From contig JAJYTD010000024.1 in assembly GCA_021793235.1 (NCBI GenBank), positions 1 to 57,649 on the forward strand: DNA of 57,649 nucleotides, in the 5' to 3' direction. This DNA comes from Actinomycetes bacterium. Lineage in GTDB: Bacteria > Actinomycetota > Actinomycetes > Streptosporangiales > Streptosporangiaceae. Position numbers and translations under genes: made by a program. Positions 27,134 through 37,877 of the stretch are shown here, in pieces. The first letter of the stretch is position 1; each line of letters begins with the position of its first letter. The notes under the pieces were generated by a model, which was not told where the DNA came from, did not search any database, and was given only the letters and a program-made list of their open reading frames with translations.

Positions 27134-30100
27134 TCACGGCGAGAAGCGCTCCGCCGCCCTCTCGATCGCCGTCTCCACCGCGCCTACACGGTCGGCCAGC
27201 AGCCCCACGGCGCCCACGGCCCGGCTCATCGGGTCCGCACCGTCACCGCCGAGGGCCTTGGACCGCAGGTAGGCGGCCTTCACCGCCGTCCACCGCTCCG
27301 CCTGCTCGGCGGTCATCGTGCCGCGCAGCTCGGCCAGCTTGAGCAGGTTGGCCTCCGCGTCGGAGGTGAGGGTCTGCGCCTCGCCCAGGTAGTGGTCGTC
27401 GATCGCCGCGGCCAGCTCGGCGTCGTTCATCACCGGCACGATCTTCTCGGCCAGCCGGTTCATGTTCCGGTAGGAGCCCTGCAGCCGGAAGGGCGGTTCG
27501 GTGCGCGACTCCTCCGCTTGTGCCGCCGAAGCGATGTAGGCCTGGTTGTTGGCCAGCACCACCTCCTGCACCGCGACCAGTTTGCGCAGCACCGCCAGAA
27601 TCTGGTCCAGCTCCACCGGTGAATAGGAGTGGGACAGCCGGTCCGGCCGCACCGACTCGTCGCCCTTGGCCAGCCGCACCAGCAGCTCGATGTCGCCGCG
27701 GTCCCGCGTGGACAGCGGTGCCAGGACCGGGTTGGACGTCAGCGCGTTCTCGATGTAGCTCAGCGCGAACAGCTCATCCTTGCCCGACAGCACGTCGCCC
27801 AGGTTGTACACGTCGGCGCGGTTGGCCAGCATGTCCGGGACCCGGAACCGCTGCCCCTCTTCGGTGTAGGGGTTACCGGCCATGCACACCGCGAACCGCT
27901 TGCCACGCAGGTCATAGGTGCGGGTACGGCCGTCCCACACCCCCTCCATCCGACGCTGCCCGTCGCACAGCGAGATGAACTTCTGCAGCAGTTCCGGCGA
28001 CGTGTGCTGGATGTCGTCCAGGTACAGCAGCGTGTTGCTGCCCATCTCCAACGCGAAGGAGATCTTCTCGACCTCCTGGCGCGCCGTCGCGTCAGGCGCA
28101 TCGGCAGGGTCCAGCGAGGTCACGGAGTGGCCCAGCGCCGGCCCGTTGACCTTGACGAACACCAGCCCCAGCCGGCTCGCCACATACTCCATCAGCGTGG
28201 TCTTGCCATACCCCGGCGGGGAGATGAGCAGCAGCAGTCCGCTCTGGTCGGTGCGCCTGCTATCGCCGGCCGCCCCCACCTGCTTGGCGAGGTTGTCGCC
28301 GATCAGCGGCAGATAGACCTCGTCCAGCAGCCGGTTGCGCACGAACCCGCTCATCACCTTCGGCCGGTACTCGTCCAGCCGCAGCCCGCGCCGCTCGCGC
28401 TCCACCAGCTCGTTGCGCCGCCGCTGGTACTCCCGGTAGGCCGGGACCTCCTCAGAGCGGAACCGCCGGGTCCGGGCCAGCAGCTCATCGAGCCGGAACA
28501 CCAGGCGCCGGTCGACGATGCGGGGGTGGGTCCCGAGCAGCCCGCTCACCTCCGCCGACAGCGACGCCGACGAGTCGTGGCGGTGCAGGGCAGAACCGCA
28601 CAGCTCGATCGCCACCGCCTCCGGCAGATCCGCCTCGCTCACCTCCTCTCCGGCCGTGGCCGAAAACGAGTTCAGCCACGCGGTGACGAGCTGGTGCCGG
28701 GCGGCCAGGTCACCACCCAGAGCCCGCAGGTCCTCCGCGAACTCCTGGCGCGACTTCGACCGCGCACCGCCGAGCGCGCGGCGGAACCGGTCCAGCAAGT
28801 CGCGGGCCCCTGCGCTGGTGACGAACCCCGAAGGTGCCCCGGCCACCTCCTCGAACAGGTACTCACCGGCGAGGTCGGTCTCGGCCGCCGCCCCGTCCAG
28901 CCCCGCCTCGGCCAGGAACGCGGCGATGGCCGAACCCAGTTCCGCGTACAGTCCGTTGATCTCCGCCGACCGGCGCGAACCGAAGATCGTCCGCGCCCGC
29001 GCCAGCGACGCCGCCCGCGTCGTCCACGCGGTCCTGGACTCCTCGTCGGTGCCGAACGCCCAGAACAACTGGGCGGCGGCCCGCGCCTGCGGCGGGTAGC
29101 GCAGCAGACCGGCACTGGTGTGCAGCCGCAGCAGCGCTTCGAGGAGCAGAGCGGCGTCGTGGTCGTGCACACCCCGCTCATACCCCTCGTCGTAACGGGT
29201 CTCGGCGACCGCGCGGACCACATCGAGCAGCCCGCCGGCTGCGTCGACGCCCCGCACCGCCGCCTCGTGAAGCACGTCAAGGGTCACCCCCTCGTCGCCG
29301 TTCTCGGCGGCGGCCAGGACCGAGGCGGCCAAATACTCGGCCCGGTACACCTCCGGGGACTCCGACACCAGCAGCCGGTCCCAGAACCGGCGGGTCGCGG
29401 CGAACTCGGCGTCGCGCACCGGCGCCCGGTAGTCCGTCCCGGTGATGCTGATCGCCATCTCGCCGTCGTGCGGCACCATCGTCAGGTCGACCGGTTGGGT
29501 GTTGACGGCGAAGCGGTGCTGCCCCAACCGGATGCTCTCGCCGCCGTCGTCGAACAGGTCGATGCGGTCCCGCAGCGCCCGGCCGGCCTCCTGCCGGGCG
29601 GCCTTGACGCGCCCCTCCAGCTCTTCGGCGCGGACCTGGTCGCCCAGCGAGCGCAGCTCCTCCGTGCTGGCGCGCAGCTTGGCCACCATGGGGTCGGAGG
29701 CGAAGTAGGTGTTCACGTCATCCAGCGAATCCAGCGACATGACCCGCCGGCTCACACTGGTGAGGATCCGCTCAGCGGACTCCACCAGCCGGTCCGCGCG
29801 CCGGGCGCGTTCGTCGAGCAGCGTCTGCTTGCGCGCCGAGAACGCCTCGTAGACGTCCTCCCGCTTGGTGGCCAGATCACCGAGGAAATCGTCGAACTCC
29901 GCGAACCGCGACTCCAGGTTCTCGATCTGCAGCATCAGCCGGCCGAGCTGCTCGTCGCAGCGGTCCGGCGTGTCCGACGCCGCCAGCGCGCCGGTGACGG
30001 CCTGGCCCAGCAGCGCGAACTCCGCGGCGAACTCGGCGCGCCCCTCGGAGTCCAGCAGCTGCCTGCGGCGCGTCTCCAACGTGGCGCGCGCCCGGTTGAT

Positions 30101-32170
30101 CCCCCCTAGGACCGCACCGATCCGCTCCAGGATCTGCGTGCGCACCAGCGCGTCGGCGACGTCAAGAGAACCCACGACCTCGGTGACGATTTCCAGGCCC
30201 TCGGTCTGCTCCGCCAGCCGCTCGCCCACCGGGCCGGCTTCGGCGACCGTCGCGATCCCCTCGGCGTCGGCGACCAGCCGGTCCACCTCGGTGTGGTAGC
30301 CGGCGAAAGCGTCGTCGCCCTGCAGGAAGTCGATGGCGCGCCGCCCCGAGGAGGCGAGTTCGTCGGCGAGCTCGCTGTCCAGCTCATCCACCCGGTCGGT
30401 GTCGACGTAGCGCATCTCCCGCACCGTCACCAGGTGGCCCTGGGCGCGGCGCAGCTCGGCCAGCCGTGACACCCACGCATCGGCCGACCGCAGCGTCTCA
30501 CTCCGCGCGCGCCGGATCAAAGACGTGATCTGTGCCGCCGCCTCCTCCAGGGCGGACTCGGCCTGCCCGGTGAGCGCCTGCACCTTCTCGAACTCGTCCA
30601 GCACCTGCTCCGCGGTGGACCGCACCTCGGTGAGCGGGCCGTACAGGTCGCCGAGTTCCTTGTCGTCCAGCCAGTGGTAGTGGTCGAACACCCGCCGGCA
30701 GGCCGCGATCAGCGCCTCGAACACCGCGGTCGACGGCGACATCTCCGCCACCATCCGGGTCACCGACAGGCAGTCGGAGATCCCCCGCACCAGCTCGGCG
30801 TTGCCGATCCGCTCCAGCGGCCCGGTACCGACCGGCTGGGCGGCCGCGTACACATCGGACACGTAGGGGGTCTGCCACACCTGCATGGGGTGCACCCGGG
30901 TGGGCTCCTCGGAGACCGCCCGGAACACCACGAGCGTTCCGTCGTCGAACAGCGAGTACCCGTGGCACGGGATCGGGGTGGCGACCTCCTTGCGGATGAC
31001 GTTGTAGGGCAGCAGCAGGCTGCGCCCCTCCTGGCGGGCGTGGAACACATAGAGCACGTCCTCGCCGTTGGGCGAGCGGATGACCTGCTCGAACTCCAGG
31101 TCCTTGATTACCGCGTCGAACGTCTTGACCGCGCCGGTGGCCAGGTAGTAGCCGCCGGGGAAGATGATGCCCTGGTCCTCGGGCAGCCTGCGGCACGCCT
31201 GCCCGATCCCGTCCAGCCGGACGACGTCCTTGGTCCTGGTGTTGAACACCAGGTACCGCCACTCGGTCTCGTTGTAGGGCAGGATCCGCAGCAGGATCAG
31301 CGCGCCGACACGGGCGTAGTAGACATCGGCGTCGGCCAGGCTCTGCAGCGGCTCGTCGACGGGTTCGCTGTAGATCCCCTCGCCCACCTCGGTGTTGTTC
31401 TCGACCTTGATGGTCAGGTCTCCGCCGACCGCCTCCACGAACATTTCACCGAGGATGGAGATGTGCGGGTGCCGCCCCAGGACATGGTCCTCGCGCGTGG
31501 CCTCGATCCACTCGAAGTCGTGAGGCGGCGGAAAGACGTGGTCGCGGTCGCCCTGGTTGTCGAGGTATTCGACCTCCCCGGCCGGGCTCACCGACCAGCG
31601 CAGCACCTTGACGTCCTCGGTGCGCGGCCCCGTCTGGAATACCGCCAGCAGCTTGCCCTCGACCCGCCGCAACTGCAGCAGGCGGGTGTCGCGGTAGTAG
31701 CGGTACAGCTCGCTGAAGTCCCGCTCGAACTGCGGGGCGCGCAGCAGCTCCGGGAACTCGCCGTGTCCGGCCGCGTCGAACCGGAACCCGTCTTCGGCGC
31801 CGCCGTCCGCGGCCGCACCGCCACCCGTGCCCCGCACGAACGTGTGCAGCGAGAATACATCGTCGACGGCGGTCTCGGGCTTCAACCCGATGAACACGTT
31901 GTAGCCGAACAGCATGAACCCGCCGACCGAGACGATGTCGCGCGGCACACAGTTGTTCTCGGTCCGGATCCGCTCGGTGCCGATCAGCCGCAGCTCGCTG
32001 CCGCCGAACACCTCCAGGCGTCGGCGGTTCAGCTCCTCGGCCCTTCGGGCGAGCTCCTCAGCCCGGCCGGACAGCCGCTCCCGCAGCACCTCGTAGGTAC
32101 CCGCGTCCAGCCCGCTGGCCGGGGAGGAGCCCGCCGCGCCGGCGGGCTCCTCGGTCACGACATCGGTCAC
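27134..32170 (-). CDS. Giant (1678 aa) multidomain protein with an embedded MoxR/AAA_5-type AAA+ ATPase module, flotillin-associated
   Basis: Walker A LLLISPPGYGKTT, Walker B LLYLDDIQH, sensor/arginine-finger region CMAGNPYTEEGQRFRVPDMLANRADV (MoxR-like). Long alpha-helical segments flank the ATPase module. The start is 7 bp after the flotillin stop. Strong GC3 bias over the full length. Confidence 0.8.
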   Translation of the reverse strand: MTDVVTEEPAGAAGSSPASGLDAGTYEVLRERLSGRAEELARRAEELNRRRLEVFGGSELRLIGTERIRTENNCVPRDIVSVGGFMLFGYNVFIGLKPETAVDDVFSLHTFVRGTGGGAAADGGAEDGFRFDAAGHGEFPELLRAPQFERDFSELYRYYRDTRLLQLRRVEGKLLAVFQTGPRTEDVKVLRWSVSPAGEVEYLDNQGDRDHVFPPPHDFEWIEATREDHVLGRHPHISILGEMFVEAVGGDLTIKVENNTEVGEGIYSEPVDEPLQSLADADVYYARVGALILLRILPYNETEWRYLVFNTRTKDVVRLDGIGQACRRLPEDQGIIFPGGYYLATGAVKTFDAVIKDLEFEQVIRSPNGEDVLYVFHARQEGRSLLLPYNVIRKEVATPIPCHGYSLFDDGTLVVFRAVSEEPTRVHPMQVWQTPYVSDVYAAAQPVGTGPLERIGNAELVRGISDCLSVTRMVAEMSPSTAVFEALIAACRRVFDHYHWLDDKELGDLYGPLTEVRSTAEQVLDEFEKVQALTGQAESALEEAAAQITSLIRRARSETLRSADAWVSRLAELRRAQGHLVTVREMRYVDTDRVDELDSELADELASSGRRAIDFLQGDDAFAGYHTEVDRLVADAEGIATVAEAGPVGERLAEQTEGLEIVTEVVGSLDVADALVRTQILERIGAVLGGINRARATLETRRRQLLDSEGRAEFAAEFALLGQAVTGALAASDTPDRCDEQLGRLMLQIENLESRFAEFDDFLGDLATKREDVYEAFSARKQTLLDERARRADRLVESAERILTSVSRRVMSLDSLDDVNTYFASDPMVAKLRASTEELRSLGDQVRAEELEGRVKAARQEAGRALRDRIDLFDDGGESIRLGQHRFAVNTQPVDLTMVPHDGEMAISITGTDYRAPVRDAEFAATRRFWDRLLVSESPEVYRAEYLAASVLAAAENGDEGVTLDVLHEAAVRGVDAAGGLLDVVRAVAETRYDEGYERGVHDHDAALLLEALLRLHTSAGLLRYPPQARAAAQLFWAFGTDEESRTAWTTRAASLARARTIFGSRRSAEINGLYAELGSAIAAFLAEAGLDGAAAETDLAGEYLFEEVAGAPSGFVTSAGARDLLDRFRRALGGARSKSRQEFAEDLRALGGDLAARHQLVTAWLNSFSATAGEEVSEADLPEAVAIELCGSALHRHDSSASLSAEVSGLLGTHPRIVDRRLVFRLDELLARTRRFRSEEVPAYREYQRRRNELVERERRGLRLDEYRPKVMSGFVRNRLLDEVYLPLIGDNLAKQVGAAGDSRRTDQSGLLLLISPPGYGKTTLMEYVASRLGLVFVKVNGPALGHSVTSLDPADAPDATARQEVEKISFALEMGSNTLLYLDDIQHTSPELLQKFISLCDGQRRMEGVWDGRTRTYDLRGKRFAVCMAGNPYTEEGQRFRVPDMLANRADVYNLGDVLSGKDELFALSYIENALTSNPVLAPLSTRDRGDIELLVRLAKGDESVRPDRLSHSYSPVELDQILAVLRKLVAVQEVVLANNQAYIASAAQAEESRTEPPFRLQGSYRNMNRLAEKIVPVMNDAELAAAIDDHYLGEAQTLTSDAEANLLKLAELRGTMTAEQAERWTAVKAAYLRSKALGGDGADPMSRAVGAVGLLADRVGAVETAIERAAERFSP

Positions 32171-32177
32171 CTATCCG

Positions 32178-34187
32178 TCACCGCTTCACACCGTCGAGGG
32201 CGGCCACGGGCGCCTCGGCGACGCCGAGGTGCTGCGCGGTTTTCAACAGCTCCTGCATCTTGCCCGCGTCAGGGCCGCCCGCGTTGATGAGCTTCACCAG
32301 CAGCGCCGACAGCGTGAGGTTCTTGATGTCGGCGGTGTCCACCGACCCCAGCACCCGGGAGATGTCGTCGGCGAAGCTGCCCGAACCGTCCAGCCAGGAC
32401 CCGGCCAGGGACTGGGCCACATCGGAGTTCTCCACGAACCCGTCCACGGCCTTGCCCATCCCGATGGAGTTGACCATCCGGTCGAAGAACATGCCGTCGC
32501 CGCCGACGATGTTGATGTCGGCCTTCTCCAGGCCGGTCGCCAGCACCGACGCCTGGGCCTCGGCGACCTGGCGGTGTACGTCGATCCCGGCGAGCCGGAT
32601 GTCCTTCTCGGTCTCCAGGCGCAGGCGGTACTCTTCGTGCTCGCGGCTGATCTCGTCGAGCGCGGCCATCGCGCCGGCCTTCTCGTTGAGCCCCTCGGCT
32701 TCGGCCTTGAGCTTCTCGCGGATGGCTTCGGCTTCGGCGAGCGCCTTCTCGCGCGCCACAGCGGCCTCCGCGCGGCCGACCTTATCGATCGCCTCGGCGT
32801 CCTGCTCGCGCACCTGGACCTCGGCCAGGCCCGCGGCGGCGGCTTCGGCCTGCAGCCCTTCGGCCAGACGGATCTTGGCGCGGGTGTCGAGTTCGGCGGC
32901 CTGCTGGCGGGCTTCGGCCAGGGTCATCTCCTCGGCGGCCTTGTGCTTGGCCGCCTCCTCGGCGGCTTCGGCCGCCTTGATGTCCTTGACCAGGTTCTCC
33001 TGCGCTTCGGCCTCGGCGTGGATGATGACCGCCTGCCGCTGGCGCTCGGCCTCCTCGACCGCGCGCAGCCGCTTGATGTTCTCCTCCTGCTCAGCGACGG
33101 TCTTCTCGACCGCGATCCGCTCCCGGATCACCTCGGCGACCTCGCGCTTTTCGCCCTCGACCTCCTTGTCCTTGGCGATACGGGACAGTTCGGTCTCGCG
33201 CTCGCGGCCGATGACCTCCAGCAGCCGATCCTTTTCGATGCGTTCGGTCTCGATGGAGATGACGCGTTCGCGGTTCTTCTCCGCGACGGCGATCTCCCGC
33301 TTCTGGTTCTCCTGCTGCACGCCCAGCTGCTCGTCGGTGCGCAGGTGCGCCTGCTGCGCCTTGAGCCGCTCCTCGGCCTGGACCCGGGCGGTCTCGGCCT
33401 CTTCGCGGGCCCGGATGATCTCGATCTCCCGCTTGGCCTTGGCCTCGGCTTCCTCCCGGCGCCGCTCCAGCTCCGCGAGGGTCTCCGCGGCCTCGGTGTC
33501 CTGCCGGTCGATCTCCTTGCGGCGGTCGTTCTCCAGCTCGTTGGTCTGCTTGTGCTGCGCGGAGGTGAGTTCGGTGATCTTACTGATGCCCTGGGCGTCG
33601 AGGATGTTGTCCCGGTCGAGCTGGCTCAGCGGGGTCTGTTCGAGGTAGTCGATCGCGGCGTCCTCAAGGATGTACCCGTTGAGGTCGGTGCCGATGAGGG
33701 CGACGATCCGGTCCCGGAACTCGTCGCGCTTGGTGTAGAGGTCCTCGAAGTCGAAGTGCTTGCCGACGGTCTTGAGCGCCTCGGAGAACTTGGCGTTGAA
33801 CAGCTGCTGCAAGGTCTCCTGGTCGCTGGCCCGGTCGGTGCCGATGGACTGGGCGACCTTGATGACGTCTTCGAGGGTCTTGTTGACGCGGACGAAGAAG
33901 GTGATGCTGATGTCCGCGCGGATGTTGTCCTGGCAGATCAGCCCTTCGCGGCCGCTGCGGTTGATCTCCATGGTCTTGACCGAGATGTCCATCACCTCGG
34001 CCTTGTGCAGCACGGGAAGAACGACAGCACCGGTGAAGGTCACGTCGACTTTTTTGACCTTGGAGATGATCAGCGCCCGGCCCTGCTCGACTTTGCGGAA
34101 GAGTCGGGTGACCACGAATAGCAGGGCGATGACGATGAGGAGTGCGACGGCGAGCAGGATGCCGAACGCGGGAGCGATGATGTCCAT
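32178..34187 (-). CDS. Flotillin-like SPFH/Band-7 protein (YqiK/FloT-like, 669 aa)
   Basis: N-terminal TM helix, an SPFH domain, then about 300 aa of E/A/R/K-rich coiled-coil and a C-terminal flotillin tail. Confidence 0.85.
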   Translation of the reverse strand: MDIIAPAFGILLAVALLIVIALLFVVTRLFRKVEQGRALIISKVKKVDVTFTGAVVLPVLHKAEVMDISVKTMEINRSGREGLICQDNIRADISITFFVRVNKTLEDVIKVAQSIGTDRASDQETLQQLFNAKFSEALKTVGKHFDFEDLYTKRDEFRDRIVALIGTDLNGYILEDAAIDYLEQTPLSQLDRDNILDAQGISKITELTSAQHKQTNELENDRRKEIDRQDTEAAETLAELERRREEAEAKAKREIEIIRAREEAETARVQAEERLKAQQAHLRTDEQLGVQQENQKREIAVAEKNRERVISIETERIEKDRLLEVIGRERETELSRIAKDKEVEGEKREVAEVIRERIAVEKTVAEQEENIKRLRAVEEAERQRQAVIIHAEAEAQENLVKDIKAAEAAEEAAKHKAAEEMTLAEARQQAAELDTRAKIRLAEGLQAEAAAAGLAEVQVREQDAEAIDKVGRAEAAVAREKALAEAEAIREKLKAEAEGLNEKAGAMAALDEISREHEEYRLRLETEKDIRLAGIDVHRQVAEAQASVLATGLEKADINIVGGDGMFFDRMVNSIGMGKAVDGFVENSDVAQSLAGSWLDGSGSFADDISRVLGSVDTADIKNLTLSALLVKLINAGGPDAGKMQELLKTAQHLGVAEAPVAALDGVKR

Positions 34188-34250: not shown

Positions 34251-34307
34251 ATGGGGGAGCGGATCGGTGCACCCTTAGGGATGGGGGAGCGGATCAGTTC
34301 ACCCTTC
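34251..34307. repeat. Two tandem about 27-bp direct repeats (ATGGGGGAGCGGATCrGTkCACCCTT) in the flotillin promoter region
   Basis: Seen: atgggggagcggatcggtgcacccttaggg / atgggggagcggatcagttcacccttctga, period 30 bp, 65-120 bp upstream of the flotillin start. Confidence 0.55.
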
Positions 34308-34377: not shown

Positions 34378-35088
34378 TCAGGACAGGCCGGGATCCAGCG
34401 CGGCGTCGAAAGCGGTGACCCAGAAGAACTCGCCTTCAGCGTCGTAGTCGAAGATCAGCGCGGTGCTGCCGGAGGTGAGGTCCTCATCGCCGGTCTGGCG
34501 GACCTGGATGATCGCGGAGGAGCCGTCCGCGGAGGTGATCTCGGCCTGTCCGAACTCGCGATCCACGCGGCCGGTGCGCACGATGCACGTCTGGCCGACG
34601 AAATCTTTGCGGGAGGACCCGCGCTGGTTCGGCAGGAACCGCCGCAGGCCCATGACGACACCGCTGGTGAACGCCCACGCGACGATGACCGCTGCGGCCA
34701 GCACGAGCAGCCCAAGGGCGATGAGGAGCGGAGTGGAGTCCACCCCGAGGGAGTCGATCAGCACGGTTCCCACCAGGCTCGCGAACCAGGCCACCGCGAT
34801 CAGCAGTGACAGCACGACGGTGACGGGTACCCCGCCCAGGCCGATACCGGGGAAGAAGGCGCCGAAGCCGCCGGTGCCGGTGTCGACATCGGTGTCGAGT
34901 AGGTCGGTGTCGACGGCGCCCAGTATGACGAAGACCCAGTAGCCGATGACGACCAGCAGCATGAAACTGAACAGGCCGGCAGGGAAACCGAGCACCGCAC
35001 CGAAGAACTCAACCATGACCCGCCGCACCGACCCCCAACCTGAACCACTGGCCACCGCTTGCCCTGCGACCTTACCGAACCAGGTCAC
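34378..35088 (-). CDS. NfeD-like / YqiJ-like membrane protein (flotillin partner)
   Basis: Multi-TM N-terminal region, then a C-terminal soluble beta-rich (OB-like) domain (QTCIVRTGRVDREFGQAEITSADGSSAIIQVRQ). It is upstream of and co-oriented with flotillin. Confidence 0.65.
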   Translation of the reverse strand: MTWFGKVAGQAVASGSGWGSVRRVMVEFFGAVLGFPAGLFSFMLLVVIGYWVFVILGAVDTDLLDTDVDTGTGGFGAFFPGIGLGGVPVTVVLSLLIAVAWFASLVGTVLIDSLGVDSTPLLIALGLLVLAAAVIVAWAFTSGVVMGLRRFLPNQRGSSRKDFVGQTCIVRTGRVDREFGQAEITSADGSSAIIQVRQTGDEDLTSGSTALIFDYDAEGEFFWVTAFDAALDPGLS

Positions 35089-35266
35089 CGGCCAGCCCCC
35101 CAGGGGGTGAAATGTCCGGTATCGGTCACTCGGTCACCATGAATGCGCCGATCGGACACCACTTTTCGTGTCCATTGGTTGACCGTATGGCGCGCTTTCG
35201 TGTAACGATCGGATCACACGGGAATGAACAGTTTCCTCGAAGCTGCGTATTCAGAGGAGCCGCCTT

Positions 35267-35536
35267 GTGAGCCGCCCGTGGGACGTCGACCCCTCTGCAC
35301 AGTTCCGCCGCCGACTTGGCAGAACAGCTGCTGAGCTTGGCGACAGCAGGGATCGTAAAGACTGTCCGGACATCTGGGAACTGACCAACGGAGATGTCGC
35401 GATCATCGGCCGGGATGTGACAGACCTCTTCTCCGCCCGACTGCCGTCAGGTGTGGGAGTCGGCGCCGATGAACGCCTTATCGTGATCCCCGGAAATATG
35501 CTCAAGGCGGCAAAACCGGACATCGAAGATGTTTGA
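35267..35536 (+). CDS. Hypothetical 89-aa protein (first gene of a coupled three-gene module)
   Basis: Good GC3 bias. Its stop overlaps the next start (ATGTTTGA). Weak resemblance to DUF397-like small proteins (C-x-D-I...G-D-V-A-I-I-G-R-D). Confidence 0.45.
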   Translation: MSRPWDVDPSAQFRRRLGRTAAELGDSRDRKDCPDIWELTNGDVAIIGRDVTDLFSARLPSGVGVGADERLIVIPGNMLKAAKPDIEDV

Positions 35537-36140
35537 TCTGGTCTGGGAGTACCCGGCGACACCGCTGAACCGCCCGGACTACCACGCCGATTCCGATCGT
35601 GTAGAAGAACGCATGTCCGGGGTCATCTGGAAGCTGGAGCGCGCACAGTACGTGTCCGAGCAGGGCGATGAGGCATGGGACGCGTTCGTCGACGGGGACT
35701 GGCCGCTGGTCATGGCGATCTACGAGAGCGAACGCGATGCCATCCGGAAGGCCGTGGAGGAGGAGGCGAAACAGGGGGTGGAGTTCCGCCGACTGCGCAT
35801 AGTGGAGCTTCCCCCGAGCTCCTACATCCGCTGGGAGCTTCCCAGCCTGCGGATATCCGCCGAATGCGGGCGTCTGATCAGAGTGCTGGATGCACGCCGG
35901 ATTGCGGATTTGGAGCGGAAGTATCCCCTACCGGAAATGCTGGTCTGCGGTGATCACGCCCTTTACCACGTCCAGTACGACGAGCAGAAGGTGCCGATCG
36001 GTGCGCGGAAGATCGACGACCGGCAAATTGTGGGCTCGGCAGCCGCGTCTGTGGCGGCGTTGTACGCTCAGGCAGAGCCGTTGACGGACTTCGTTGAACG
36101 GGAGATCACCCCACTGGGGCCACCAAAGTACGCGGAATGA
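35529..36140 (+). CDS. Hypothetical 203-aa protein (second gene of the module)
   Basis: Overlaps both neighbours by 8 nt and 4 nt. No recognisable catalytic motif by eye. Confidence 0.5.
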   Translation: MFDLVWEYPATPLNRPDYHADSDRVEERMSGVIWKLERAQYVSEQGDEAWDAFVDGDWPLVMAIYESERDAIRKAVEEEAKQGVEFRRLRIVELPPSSYIRWELPSLRISAECGRLIRVLDARRIADLERKYPLPEMLVCGDHALYHVQYDEQKVPIGARKIDDRQIVGSAAASVAALYAQAEPLTDFVEREITPLGPPKYAE

Positions 36141-36907
36141 CACAGATAAGACGAAACGCACGCCAGGAAAGCGACCACGCCGCTGTCCGGCTGCGTTCTG
36201 CTGCTGTTTTTACTCTCATCGCGCTCCTCGCCGCGGCGGCTGTGGCCGTATCCCCTGTAGCGCTACGCGTGTTCGACGGAGCAGGCGGCGAGTGGGAGCG
36301 GCTGAGCTTCATCGGGCAGACCTACGGTGCCGTGTCCGCTCTCATCGCCGTGTTCGCGCTGGTCGGTGTGATCGGCACCCTCGTCTTCCAGGCCCGTGAC
36401 AGTCGGCGGGCGATCGAGGAAACCCGGCGCCAGGCAATGAGCGACCTGCTCAAAATGGCCATGGACGACCCCGACCTTGACGAGTGCTGGGGTCCGATTC
36501 CCCAGCCGGCCGACCCCAAGGCGCGCAAGCAGCAGCTTTACACCAACATGATCATCGCCCAGTGGAGCGCGGCTTTCGAGGCCGAGGCCATTCCGGAAGG
36601 GCGGCTGCGCCTGATCGCGCGGGAGATGTTCGAGGGCCGGCCGGGGCGCACCTACTGGCAGCGGGCAGGCCAAGGGTGGGTGTCCGGGCCGGGCAGCGCC
36701 ATGGAACTGCGTTTCGCGCGAATCCTCGACGAGGAGTACCACCGGGCCGTAGCCGTCTCGCCGGAGCCACCGCAAGAGCGGTCACCCGAGGAGAAGCGCG
36801 GACCGCGCGGACGCCGCTTCGGCACCGCCCTCCTCGCCGCGGCCACCTTCGCCGCCGGGGCTGCCACGGCCGCGGCTGTCGCCTCGGGCCGGCGTCGCCC
36901 GAGCTGA
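36137..36907 (+). CDS. Hypothetical membrane protein, 256 aa (third gene of the module)
   Basis: Two N-terminal TM helices (AVFTLIALLAAAAVAV; TYGAVSALIAVFALVGVIGTLVF), then a soluble domain and an Ala-rich tail. Its start overlaps the upstream stop (ATGA). Confidence 0.45.
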   Translation: MTQIRRNARQESDHAAVRLRSAAVFTLIALLAAAAVAVSPVALRVFDGAGGEWERLSFIGQTYGAVSALIAVFALVGVIGTLVFQARDSRRAIEETRRQAMSDLLKMAMDDPDLDECWGPIPQPADPKARKQQLYTNMIIAQWSAAFEAEAIPEGRLRLIAREMFEGRPGRTYWQRAGQGWVSGPGSAMELRFARILDEEYHRAVAVSPEPPQERSPEEKRGPRGRRFGTALLAAATFAAGAATAAAVASGRRRPS

Positions 36908-37539
36908 CCTCGCCCGCGTCTGGCCCCGTGCCCGCTGGGATCAGTTGCCCAATGGGCGCCGGTGGCCGTCCGGACCGCTCGGCTCCGCCTCGGGCGCGGG
37001 TGTGCCGTCGGGGGGAAACCGTGCTTGCGCAGCATCGTGCGGCGGTAGTGGCCGGCGGTGGCCAGCGAAAGCACGGACAGGGCCGCGGCCCAGACGCCCA
37101 CAATGATTCCCGTGGGTGCGGTGATCCAGACGGTACTCCAGGAGCTCCACTCCACCGGGTCGATGAGGAAGGAGACCAGGCCGCCACCGGGGTTGGTGAC
37201 GTAGGAGAGCGGGATGAGGACCAGGGAGGAGACGCCCACCACCGCGACGAGCCGCCGGAGGGCGTACCAGCGCCCCAGCACATCGTCGCGCACCCACATC
37301 CGATAGCGGGGCGGCACCCGGGTGTCGAGTGACCGGTAGGCCAGCCAGCGCAGGAAGGGCGGGCGTTCCCGCAGGCGGGTGAGTAGCCCGGCCTTGACGA
37401 GCCCCCACCGCTCATCGGCGGTCGTGTCCGACTCGCGCAGCTCCAGGGTGGTGGCGATGATCTCTTCGCCGGGCTGTTCCCGGTAGTGCCGGGGGTAGCA
37501 GCGCAGTGCGCGCCGTAGCCGCTGCTCGTATCTGTCCAT
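36652..37539 (-). CDS. PadR-associated membrane protein (DUF1700-like)
   Basis: MDRYEQRLRRALRCYPRHYREQPGEEII...TTADERW, then TM helices. Its start overlaps the PadR stop. The 3' end is uncertain: the frame runs open to 36652, which would overlap the convergent gene by about 255 bp. Confidence 0.45.
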   Translation of the reverse strand: MDRYEQRLRRALRCYPRHYREQPGEEIIATTLELRESDTTADERWGLVKAGLLTRLRERPPFLRWLAYRSLDTRVPPRYRMWVRDDVLGRWYALRRLVAVVGVSSLVLIPLSYVTNPGGGLVSFLIDPVEWSSWSTVWITAPTGIIVGVWAAALSVLSLATAGHYRRTMLRKHGFPPTAHPRPRRSRAVRTATGAHWATDPSGHGARRGRGQLGRRRPEATAAAVAAPAAKVAAARRAVPKRRPRGPRFSSGDRSCGGSGETATARWYSSSRIRAKRSSMALPGPDTHPWPARCQ

Positions 37540-37541
37540 GC

Positions 37542-37877
37542 TCACACGGCCCCCATTCTCGGCTGCGGGCGCGGCGCCAGCAGGGATCGGGCGACCGATG
37601 CCAGGCGTTCCAGCCGCGCGGTCTCCTCGGCCAGCACCGTGTGCCCGTCCTCGGTCAGTTGGTAATAGCGGCGGTTGCGGCCGTTGACGACCTCTTCCTT
37701 GGCGACCGAGACCAGGCCGTCGCCGGTGAGCCGGTCGAGCGCGCCGTAGAGGGTTCCGGCGCCGAGGCGCACCCGCCCGTCGGAGAGCTCCCGCACCGCC
37801 GTGATGATCGCGTATCCGTGCCGTGGTCCTTCGGTGAGGGCCAGCAGCATGAGGTAGCTCTGCTCCCGTAGTGCCAT
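37542..37877 (-). CDS. PadR-family transcriptional regulator
   Basis: LMLLALTEGPRHGYAIITAV...GTLYGALDRLTGDGLV...RRYYQLTEDG: canonical PadR winged helix. Confidence 0.85.
   Translation of the reverse strand: MALREQSYLMLLALTEGPRHGYAIITAVRELSDGRVRLGAGTLYGALDRLTGDGLVSVAKEEVVNGRNRRYYQLTEDGHTVLAEETARLERLASVARSLLAPRPQPRMGAV

Follow-up and report, generated by a model that had tools for sequence, protein, structure and literature searches.

The window analysed here covers positions 1-57,649 of contig JAJYTD010000024.1 (assembly GCA_021793235.1), part of the metagenome-assembled genome (MAG) of a Nocardiopsaceae bacterium. At positions 35267-36907 its forward strand carries a translationally coupled module of three genes, which is best read as belonging to an extensive family of accessory operons in actinomycetes that has so far gone undescribed. 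The first open reading frame, ORF1 (35267-35536; locus M0026_04655), begins with GTG, preceded at a distance of 7 nt by the Shine-Dalgarno sequence GAGGAG, and encodes an acidic protein of 89 aa (isoelectric point, pI, 4.8). ORF2 (35529-36140, ATG start) encodes an equally acidic protein of 203 aa (pI 4.8) that belongs to the Pfam family DUF6879, and ORF3 (36137-36907, ATG start) a basic DUF6082 membrane protein of 256 aa (pI 10.0). ORF1 and ORF2 share an 8-nt start/stop overlap, ATGTTTGA (35529-35536), and ORF2 runs into ORF3 through a 4-nt ATGA on the same strand. A first-pass annotation had described these three reading frames, with their lengths and both overlaps, as a translationally coupled module of uncharacterised proteins; the layout is confirmed in every detail, and the module itself is borne out by the co-inheritance of the genes and the retention of the overlap across relatives.

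Comparison between relatives gives ratios of nonsynonymous to synonymous substitution (dN/dS) of 0.03-0.10 for ORF1, 0.08-0.19 for DUF6879 and 0.13-0.17 for DUF6082. Thus all three genes are real and under purifying selection, which is strongest on ORF1. Their GC content at third codon positions (GC3) is low, at 0.63, 0.77 and 0.80 for ORF1, ORF2 and ORF3 against 0.86-0.93 in the surrounding genes; the medians across related loci are 0.77 and 0.81, where the window has 0.63 and 0.77. The same MAG holds a second ORF1...DUF6879 pair, which is uncoupled and has no third gene.

A new family of 89-residue proteins

ORF1 defines a conserved small-protein family outside Pfam that is genuinely new. 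The 177 detectable homologues are almost constantly 89 aa long and share 60-76% identity across actinomycete genera (Streptomyces, Actinomadura, Nocardiopsis, Streptomonospora, Micromonospora, Saccharopolyspora, Kitasatospora and others), and no other part of the module is as strongly conserved as ORF1. Its invariant residues include R16, C33, W37, D43, D50, E69 and R70. Searches of Pfam, NCBIfam, PADLOC and PHROGs gave no match. The AlphaFold2 model is confident (predicted local distance difference test score, pLDDT, 86.6), and structure comparison returned no fold match and no recognisable DNA-binding fold.

The 89-aa protein had also been called weakly reminiscent of DUF397 (PF04149). There is a real local pattern of 16 columns behind this impression, CPDIWELDNGDVAVIGRD against CVEVA..G.VAVRDS, yet the kinship failed every statistical test: none of 36 aligned ORF1 family members matches DUF397, even at E<=10, and alignment of the two profiles with hhalign gives a probability of 1.2-1.6%. 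We therefore reject it.

DUF6879 keeps a phospholipase D fold and has lost its catalytic residues

ORF2, in which the first-pass annotation saw no recognisable motif, is in fact a full-length member of DUF6879 (PF21806) with a fold like that of phospholipase D (PLD). The match reaches E 4.8e-33 and 114.4 bits, against a gathering cut-off of 23.9, and spans profile positions 7-166 of 167; the family as a whole comprises 1018 clusters at 50% identity. The predicted structure (pLDDT 96.7; predicted TM-score 0.91) is a beta-alpha-beta sandwich that can be superposed on PLD-family structures, which places it at the level of fold within the PLD superfamily. Its best structural match is the non-catalytic domain of TrmBL2/TrmB, and the FAM83 pseudo-PLDs also score high; the same fold is common to Nuc, NucT, Zucchini, BfiI and SauUSI. 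By sequence, searches of DUF6879 and DUF6082 against solved structures returned only noise.

An alignment of 66 DUF6879 sequences contains no histidine that is invariant or conserved in at least 90% of them, and the family lacks the catalytic motif HxK(x4)D(x6)G[ST]xN, so it does not belong among the catalytic PLDs. The residues that are invariant in this alignment are K35, E37, R38, Q40, W58, R69, R88 and R90, together with Y99, W102, E103, P135, E136, Y150, G158 and L178, and the family has a motif set of its own: WKLER.Q, RRLR.VE, Y.WE, PE and Y.V.YD. The sole apparent echo of the HKD motif is the spacing D151-x6-G158, which may recall the HKD D-x6-G. Since no histidine is conserved and the TrmB-family and FAM83 domains top the match list, we conclude that DUF6879 keeps the phospholipase D fold but not the machinery for canonical PLD catalysis, having lost both the catalytic His and the catalytic Lys. 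This assignment of an inactive PLD fold, like the ORF1 family, is new.

The third gene encodes a DUF6082 membrane protein

ORF3 matches DUF6082 (PF19560) over positions 1-161 of the 163 in the profile (E 3.4e-53; 180 bits against a gathering cut-off of 26.7). Its hydropathy peaks at residues ~20-43, 58-85 and 228-250 correspond to two N-terminal transmembrane helices and a C-terminal hydrophobic segment, and a basic, helical, soluble domain of ~130 aa, probably cytoplasmic, lies between the second and third segments, at residues 86-216. The soluble domain had been recognised before, with two membrane helices; the hydrophobic segments number three rather than two, and this layout is kept in 24 homologous third genes. 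A holin-like match (NCBIfam TIGR01598, E 0.012) is weak and falls below the cut-off.

The junction with ORF2 is less constant than that between ORF1 and ORF2. In relatives the spacing ranges from a 23-nt overlap to a 22-nt gap, and the ATGA noted in the window, which is present there, is not kept as such. When metagenomes were scanned from DUF6082, the ORF1-DUF6879 pair stood in front of it in 17 of the 25 loci with enough upstream DNA. More distant DUF6082 genes have no such pair upstream, and some of them directly adjoin XRE/DUF397 genes, with one locus reading DUF6879-XRE-DUF6082 (L127, L130).

A conserved pair with an exchangeable third partner

With each species represented by a single genome, a scan turned up at least 400 loci that encode ORF1, of which the best 80 were analysed. 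DUF6879 lies directly 3' of ORF1 in 74 of these and is fused to it as a single ORF in one (L070), and the in-frame 8-nt overlap, of the form RTGNNTRA, is kept in 72 of the 80, in many genera. The expectation that gene order would be kept in relatives thus holds for ORF1-DUF6879 nearly everywhere; one clade keeps the order of all three genes.

The third position is where the loci differ. Partners were counted over 82 loci, the 80 plus one further Streptomyces locus and the window. DUF6082 follows immediately downstream in 24, the window included; in 31 that place is taken by an ATPase of the STAND class (signal transduction ATPases with numerous domains) with NB-ARC and TPR domains; in 23 a similar STAND ATPase belongs to a divergent upstream operon that also encodes a 134-aa helical protein; and four loci have none of these partners. 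A STAND ATPase therefore accompanies 54 of the 82 related loci, and in L089 one is fused; the window operon is without one. The STAND partners have no effector domain of their own. In a neighbour-joining tree of DUF6879 the clades match the three partner forms, which indicates that the partnerships are old and stably inherited. Genomes with two copies hold two different classes (L054/L056, L041/L064, L069/L075 and L076/L022). On a plasmid of Kitasatospora cathayae, RefSeq lists a 1014-aa DUF6879-NB-ARC-TPR fusion in which DUF6879 occupies the N-terminus of the ATPase, and the fusion gene is preceded by an 89-aa gene with the usual overlap. This exchange of the third gene for a STAND ATPase in sister clades, which the first-pass annotation overlooked, tells more about the module than any other observation.

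Some copies are incomplete. ORF1 and DUF6082 occur without DUF6879 in three decayed copies (L011, L024, L106), and in another decayed copy (L016) the STAND gene is truncated. Other loci hold tandem or convergent arrays: L112 (3965-8355) reads ORF1-DUF6879-DUF6082-DUF6879-DUF6082-(DUF6879 fragment)-DUF6082, further arrays occur at L103 (3069-5750) and L015, and in L085 two convergent trios lie on either side of an XRE-DUF397 pair. A possible divergent trio stands directly 3' of a primase/helicase gene (PriCT_2, DUF5906, VapE-like) in L131 (508-5618). It consists of a 95-aa protein with the motif ...GCPSIYLDEQGDFVVQG..., a weak DUF6879 match and a DUF6082 gene; the homology of the 95-aa protein to ORF1 is a judgement by eye, together with a profile that already included this protein. 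The adjoining primase/helicase gene suggests that this trio is carried on an integrative element.

In the loci with a divergent STAND gene, the 134-aa helical protein that precedes the ATPase (in L004, 9328-9732 on the reverse strand, and in homologues) ends in ...ASGRARVYQAGRD.HI. The same tail motif is found at the N-terminus of divergent-type STAND proteins (...YQAGRD.HI), with an hhalign probability of 91.5% over 19 columns. Within this divergent-STAND clade, several loci (L004, L020, L054, L076, L080 and L084) carry a palindrome of the form TGGCATATGCCA in the divergent intergenic region ~100-120 nt 5' of ORF1, a candidate operator.

A different setting for DUF6879 is found in Microbispora (L092, 6637-9829) and Sphaerisporangium (L094, 6547-9871), where a four-gene cluster without ORF1 comprises a ThiF-like gene, a 41-42-aa peptide (...KISFRLLDKIETTQSYSGNSNS), DUF6879 and a membrane protein of 403-406 aa with an HExxH motif, here HELAH. 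This cluster may represent a pathway like that of ribosomally synthesised and post-translationally modified peptides, or one of peptide adenylation.

Surroundings of the module in the window and in related loci

The module had been described as divergent from a flotillin locus, an adjacency whose conservation was worth checking in related genomes. It is not kept: flotillin, the NfeD-like gene, PadR and SUFU lie beside the module in none of 80 related loci, and the arrangement in the window is therefore incidental. The module clusters are all that the window has in common with the other loci, the flanks being unconserved, and around the module we found no notable flanking direct repeats and no tRNA as insertion signatures.

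The divergent upstream gene (34378-35088, reverse strand), previously labelled nfeD, is separated from ORF1 by a spacer of 178 bp (35089-35266; GC 0.57), the presumed promoter region of the module. The divergent gap is as first reported, and the label finds no counterpart in Pfam or NCBIfam, neither of which gives a match at E<=0.1; the gene is NfeD-like only by its adjacency to flotillin and by its layout, with hydrophobic segments at the N-terminus and a soluble domain at the C-terminus. Similarly, the inverted repeats reported for the spacer, GGACAC...GTGTCC and CGTGT...ACACG, do exist, but shuffled sequence contains such repeats just as often (P 0.46 for 6-bp arms and 0.39 for 5-bp arms). 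A GGACA-type upstream element is common to the closely related Actinomadura subclade only, and is not decisive for an operator. No consensus sigma-70 promoter or terminator was called in 34900-37700; by eye, a possible promoter lies at ~35181-35210 (TTGACC, an 18-nt spacer and TAACGA).

Beyond the spacer, the reverse strand encodes a 1678-aa protein (27134-34187) with DUF3686 ('ATPase involved in DNA repair'), DUF7902 and AAA_5 matches, whose gene ends 8 nt from that of a 669-aa flotillin-like SPFH protein. The two look like a giant AAA ATPase-flotillin operon that is separate from the three-gene module. The spacer that separates the flotillin gene from the NfeD-like gene contains two tandem copies of the 26-nt sequence ATGGGGGAGCGGATCGGTGCACCCTT (34251-34306), which are 92% identical and have a period of 30 nt. 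On the other side of the module, an ORF for a DUF5313-like membrane protein (36652-37545, reverse strand; Pfam E 9e-9, above the cut-off) is coupled to the PadR gene (37542-37877) by a 4-nt overlap. It is absent from the public gene calls for this contig, and its frame runs to 36652, in convergent overlap with the last 256 nt of ORF3.

Neighbouring genes were also surveyed across 21 loci of the DUF6082 class, in which 140 ORFs were called at up to ~5.5 kb from the module. DUF5753 (7), HATPase_c_2 (6) and HTH_31 (5) recur most often among them; these are the gene sets of WhiJ/AbaA-type XRE, DUF397 and anti-sigma-like proteins. Pairs of XRE (HTH_31+DUF5753) and DUF397 genes occur within 6 kb of the module in ~35 of the 82 loci, at variable distance and orientation; there is none within that distance in the window. 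A TIR-domain gene lies near the module in some Streptomyces loci. The module is rare on plasmids, PHROGs gave no real match to any of the three proteins, and IMG/VR yielded one weak match to the module, at 29% identity; we reject a phage origin. The low GC3, unconserved flanks, decayed copies and primase/helicase-linked trio give the module an accessory character.

A model for the module and its alternatives

We propose, at about even odds, that the module is a co-functional accessory cassette for signalling or conflict in which an inactive PLD domain serves as adaptor. ORF1 and DUF6879, two acidic cytoplasmic proteins, would be made in fixed proportion by way of the conserved 8-nt overlap and would form a complex. 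Within it DUF6879 may act as a non-catalytic binding or dimerising adaptor, as PLD-like domains do in FAM83 proteins and in regulators of the TrmB family. This core appears to be wired, according to clade, either to the NB-ARC+TPR STAND ATPase, a protein resembling the NOD-like receptors (NLRs), or to the DUF6082 membrane protein, so that DUF6879 would stand at the output end of a switch: the STAND ATPase in most clades and DUF6082 here. The site at which DUF6879 is fused, the STAND N-terminus, would correspond to the usual output position. In the window version the basic domain of DUF6082 might tether the acidic pair to the membrane or serve as its docking site there; the complementary charges (pI 4.8 and 4.8 against 10.0) count in favour of such docking. 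The most likely function would then be that of a switchable signalling or conflict cassette, either triggered by stress or an invader or exerting developmental control of the WhiJ/XRE-DUF397 kind. Genes in the neighbourhood tend to favour a regulatory network; copy-number pattern, composition and the STAND fusion tend to favour a conflict system.

Several observations weigh against this model. The invariant charged residues exceed what a scaffold needs (those at issue are K35, E37, R38, Q40, R69, R88, R90, E103, E136 and Y150), and a non-canonical enzyme or ligand site in DUF6879 is therefore possible. If the STAND protein is a sensor and DUF6082 an effector, there is no obvious functional equivalence between them, and no shared docking domain was found when the DUF6082 soluble domain, the STAND N-termini and the 134-aa protein were compared. 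An adaptor does not explain the DUF6879 proteins of Microbispora and Sphaerisporangium, which are ~40% identical to ORF2 and occur without ORF1. As to conflict, none of the three proteins matches PADLOC-DB v2 at E<=0.1, PADLOC found no real defence genes among the 140 neighbours, only protein kinases matching PD-T4-6 models, and the module is absent from 50,697 phage records.

Four other readings, which overlap in part, have to be set against our model. The module could be an NLR-type anti-phage or abortive-infection system, in which STAND or another cue senses the invader, the pair is a trans effector or adaptor, and DUF6082 is the membrane-disrupting executioner of a STAND-less variant. Such a system would suit STAND partners that have no effector domain, a fusion that sets DUF6879 at the effector position, several copies and classes per genome, low GC3, variable flanks, the occasional TIR-domain gene and the weak holin-like match of ORF3. 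It sits badly with the absence of a PADLOC match, with non-defence neighbours enriched for XRE/DUF5753 and HATPase_c_2, with the loss of the catalytic PLD motif and with an ORF1 far more conserved than the usual components of an arms race. Text searches of Kaur et al. 2020 (PMC7159879) and of the 2026 STAND atlas with PLD-related terms turned up no such module, and the part of the 2025 Streptomyces defence-discovery preprint that deals with validation has none either. We regard this reading as possible, if doubtful. The neighbours lead instead to a developmental or antibiotic-regulatory module of a WhiJ/XRE-DUF397/anti-sigma-like network that modulates transcription indirectly and does not kill, a reading we would call somewhat unlikely. 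It draws on the XRE/DUF397 pairs near so many loci, the commonest neighbour families and the distant DUF6082 genes beside XRE/DUF397. XRE-DUF397 pairs are pleiotropic regulators rather than toxin-antitoxin systems (PMC10364602, PMC6262351), and STAND proteins also act as regulators (AfsR; bioRxiv 10.64898/2026.09.02.748808). Nevertheless, the three proteins all lack a DNA-binding domain, the two soluble ones are acidic, the variable distance and orientation of the XRE genes speak for co-location rather than an operon, and the window has no such pair near its module.

The remaining two readings concern the pair itself. A small upstream gene that overlaps a larger downstream one, in a module that is multi-copy, accessory and sometimes decayed, recalls a type II toxin-antitoxin pair of ORF1 with DUF6879 and an accessory third gene. 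We think this very unlikely: ORF1 has no recognisable DNA-binding fold and is better conserved than its partner, whereas antitoxins usually show the opposite; no known toxin fold or motif is present in either protein; and ORF1 with DUF6082 persists without DUF6879 in three loci. It is likewise improbable that DUF6879 is an active non-HKD enzyme (a phosphodiesterase, a nuclease or one that processes peptides or nucleotides) with ORF1 as its substrate-like partner or regulator. An enzyme would suit the fold, common to Nuc, NucT, Zucchini, BfiI and SauUSI, the close homologues in the ThiF and short-peptide cluster, the high density of invariant residues (K, R, E, Y and D) and perhaps the D151-x6-G158 spacing, but the whole family is devoid of a conserved His, and its best structural match is to non-catalytic TrmBL2/TrmB, with the FAM83 pseudo-PLDs scoring high.

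A more specific idea, which we consider unlikely, is that ORF1/DUF6879 is the signalling or executioner unit of an actinomycete NLR-like immunity. The dead PLD domain would be oligomerised by STAND, or docked on DUF6082, and would release the ultra-conserved 89-aa protein, or activate it, to act on some conserved target in the cell; the window would then hold a STAND-independent, membrane-gated variant.

Significance and comparison with known systems

The clean three-way exchange of partner (membrane protein, STAND downstream, STAND divergent), together with a Rosetta-stone fusion, is new, and the module is common, with at least 400 loci in species-representative genomes of the main antibiotic-producing actinomycetes. 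It raises the question of through what an effector-less bacterial NLR-like ATPase signals. If the pair is the STAND output, it would constitute a new class of effector or adaptor for bacterial STAND biology; if it is regulatory, it would extend the poorly understood WhiJ/XRE-DUF397 network that controls development and antibiotic production in Streptomyces. A literature search found no searchable paper that mentions DUF6879 or DUF6082.

Among proteins of related fold, the C-terminal domain of TrmB/TrmBL2 and the DUF1669 domain of FAM83 have no detectable sequence relation to DUF6879. In contrast to these, DUF6879 stands alone, outside a winged helix-turn-helix or kinase-binding context, has its own motif set and is obligately paired with an 89-aa protein. 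It differs from the single-HKD nucleases (Nuc, NucT and Zucchini, and the domains of BfiI, NgoAVII and SauUSI) in being without HxK(x4)D(x6)GSxN and in its acidity, which is unlike that of a nucleic-acid enzyme.

Among whole systems, the module resembles the STAND/NLR systems (Avs, bNACHT-type and the effector-associated-domain systems of PMC7159879) in that an NB-ARC+TPR ATPase accompanies the core in sister clades, one protein has DUF6879 fused at the usual effector position, genomes hold paralogues and the hosts are multicellular actinomycetes. Unlike them, the window operon lacks a STAND gene, contains neither a known effector domain nor a known effector-associated domain, and has no PADLOC match. 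With the XRE-DUF397 pairs of Streptomyces (WhiJ/BldB-type, Scr1/Scr2), which often lie within a few kb of it, the module shares restriction to actinomycetes, multiple copies, an accessory character and a small protein. ORF1 and DUF397 have in common the short pattern C-[PV]-[DE]-[IV]...G-x-V-A-[VI], for which homology is statistically unsupported, and the trio differs in having no helix-turn-helix protein and in its gene order and partner. The window operon has the defining features neither of STAND conflict systems (PMC7159879, PMC13581612) nor of XRE-DUF397 pairs (PMC10364602, PMC6262351). It is best read as an accessory, modular switch-plus-adaptor cassette, solid in its anatomy and proposed in its role.

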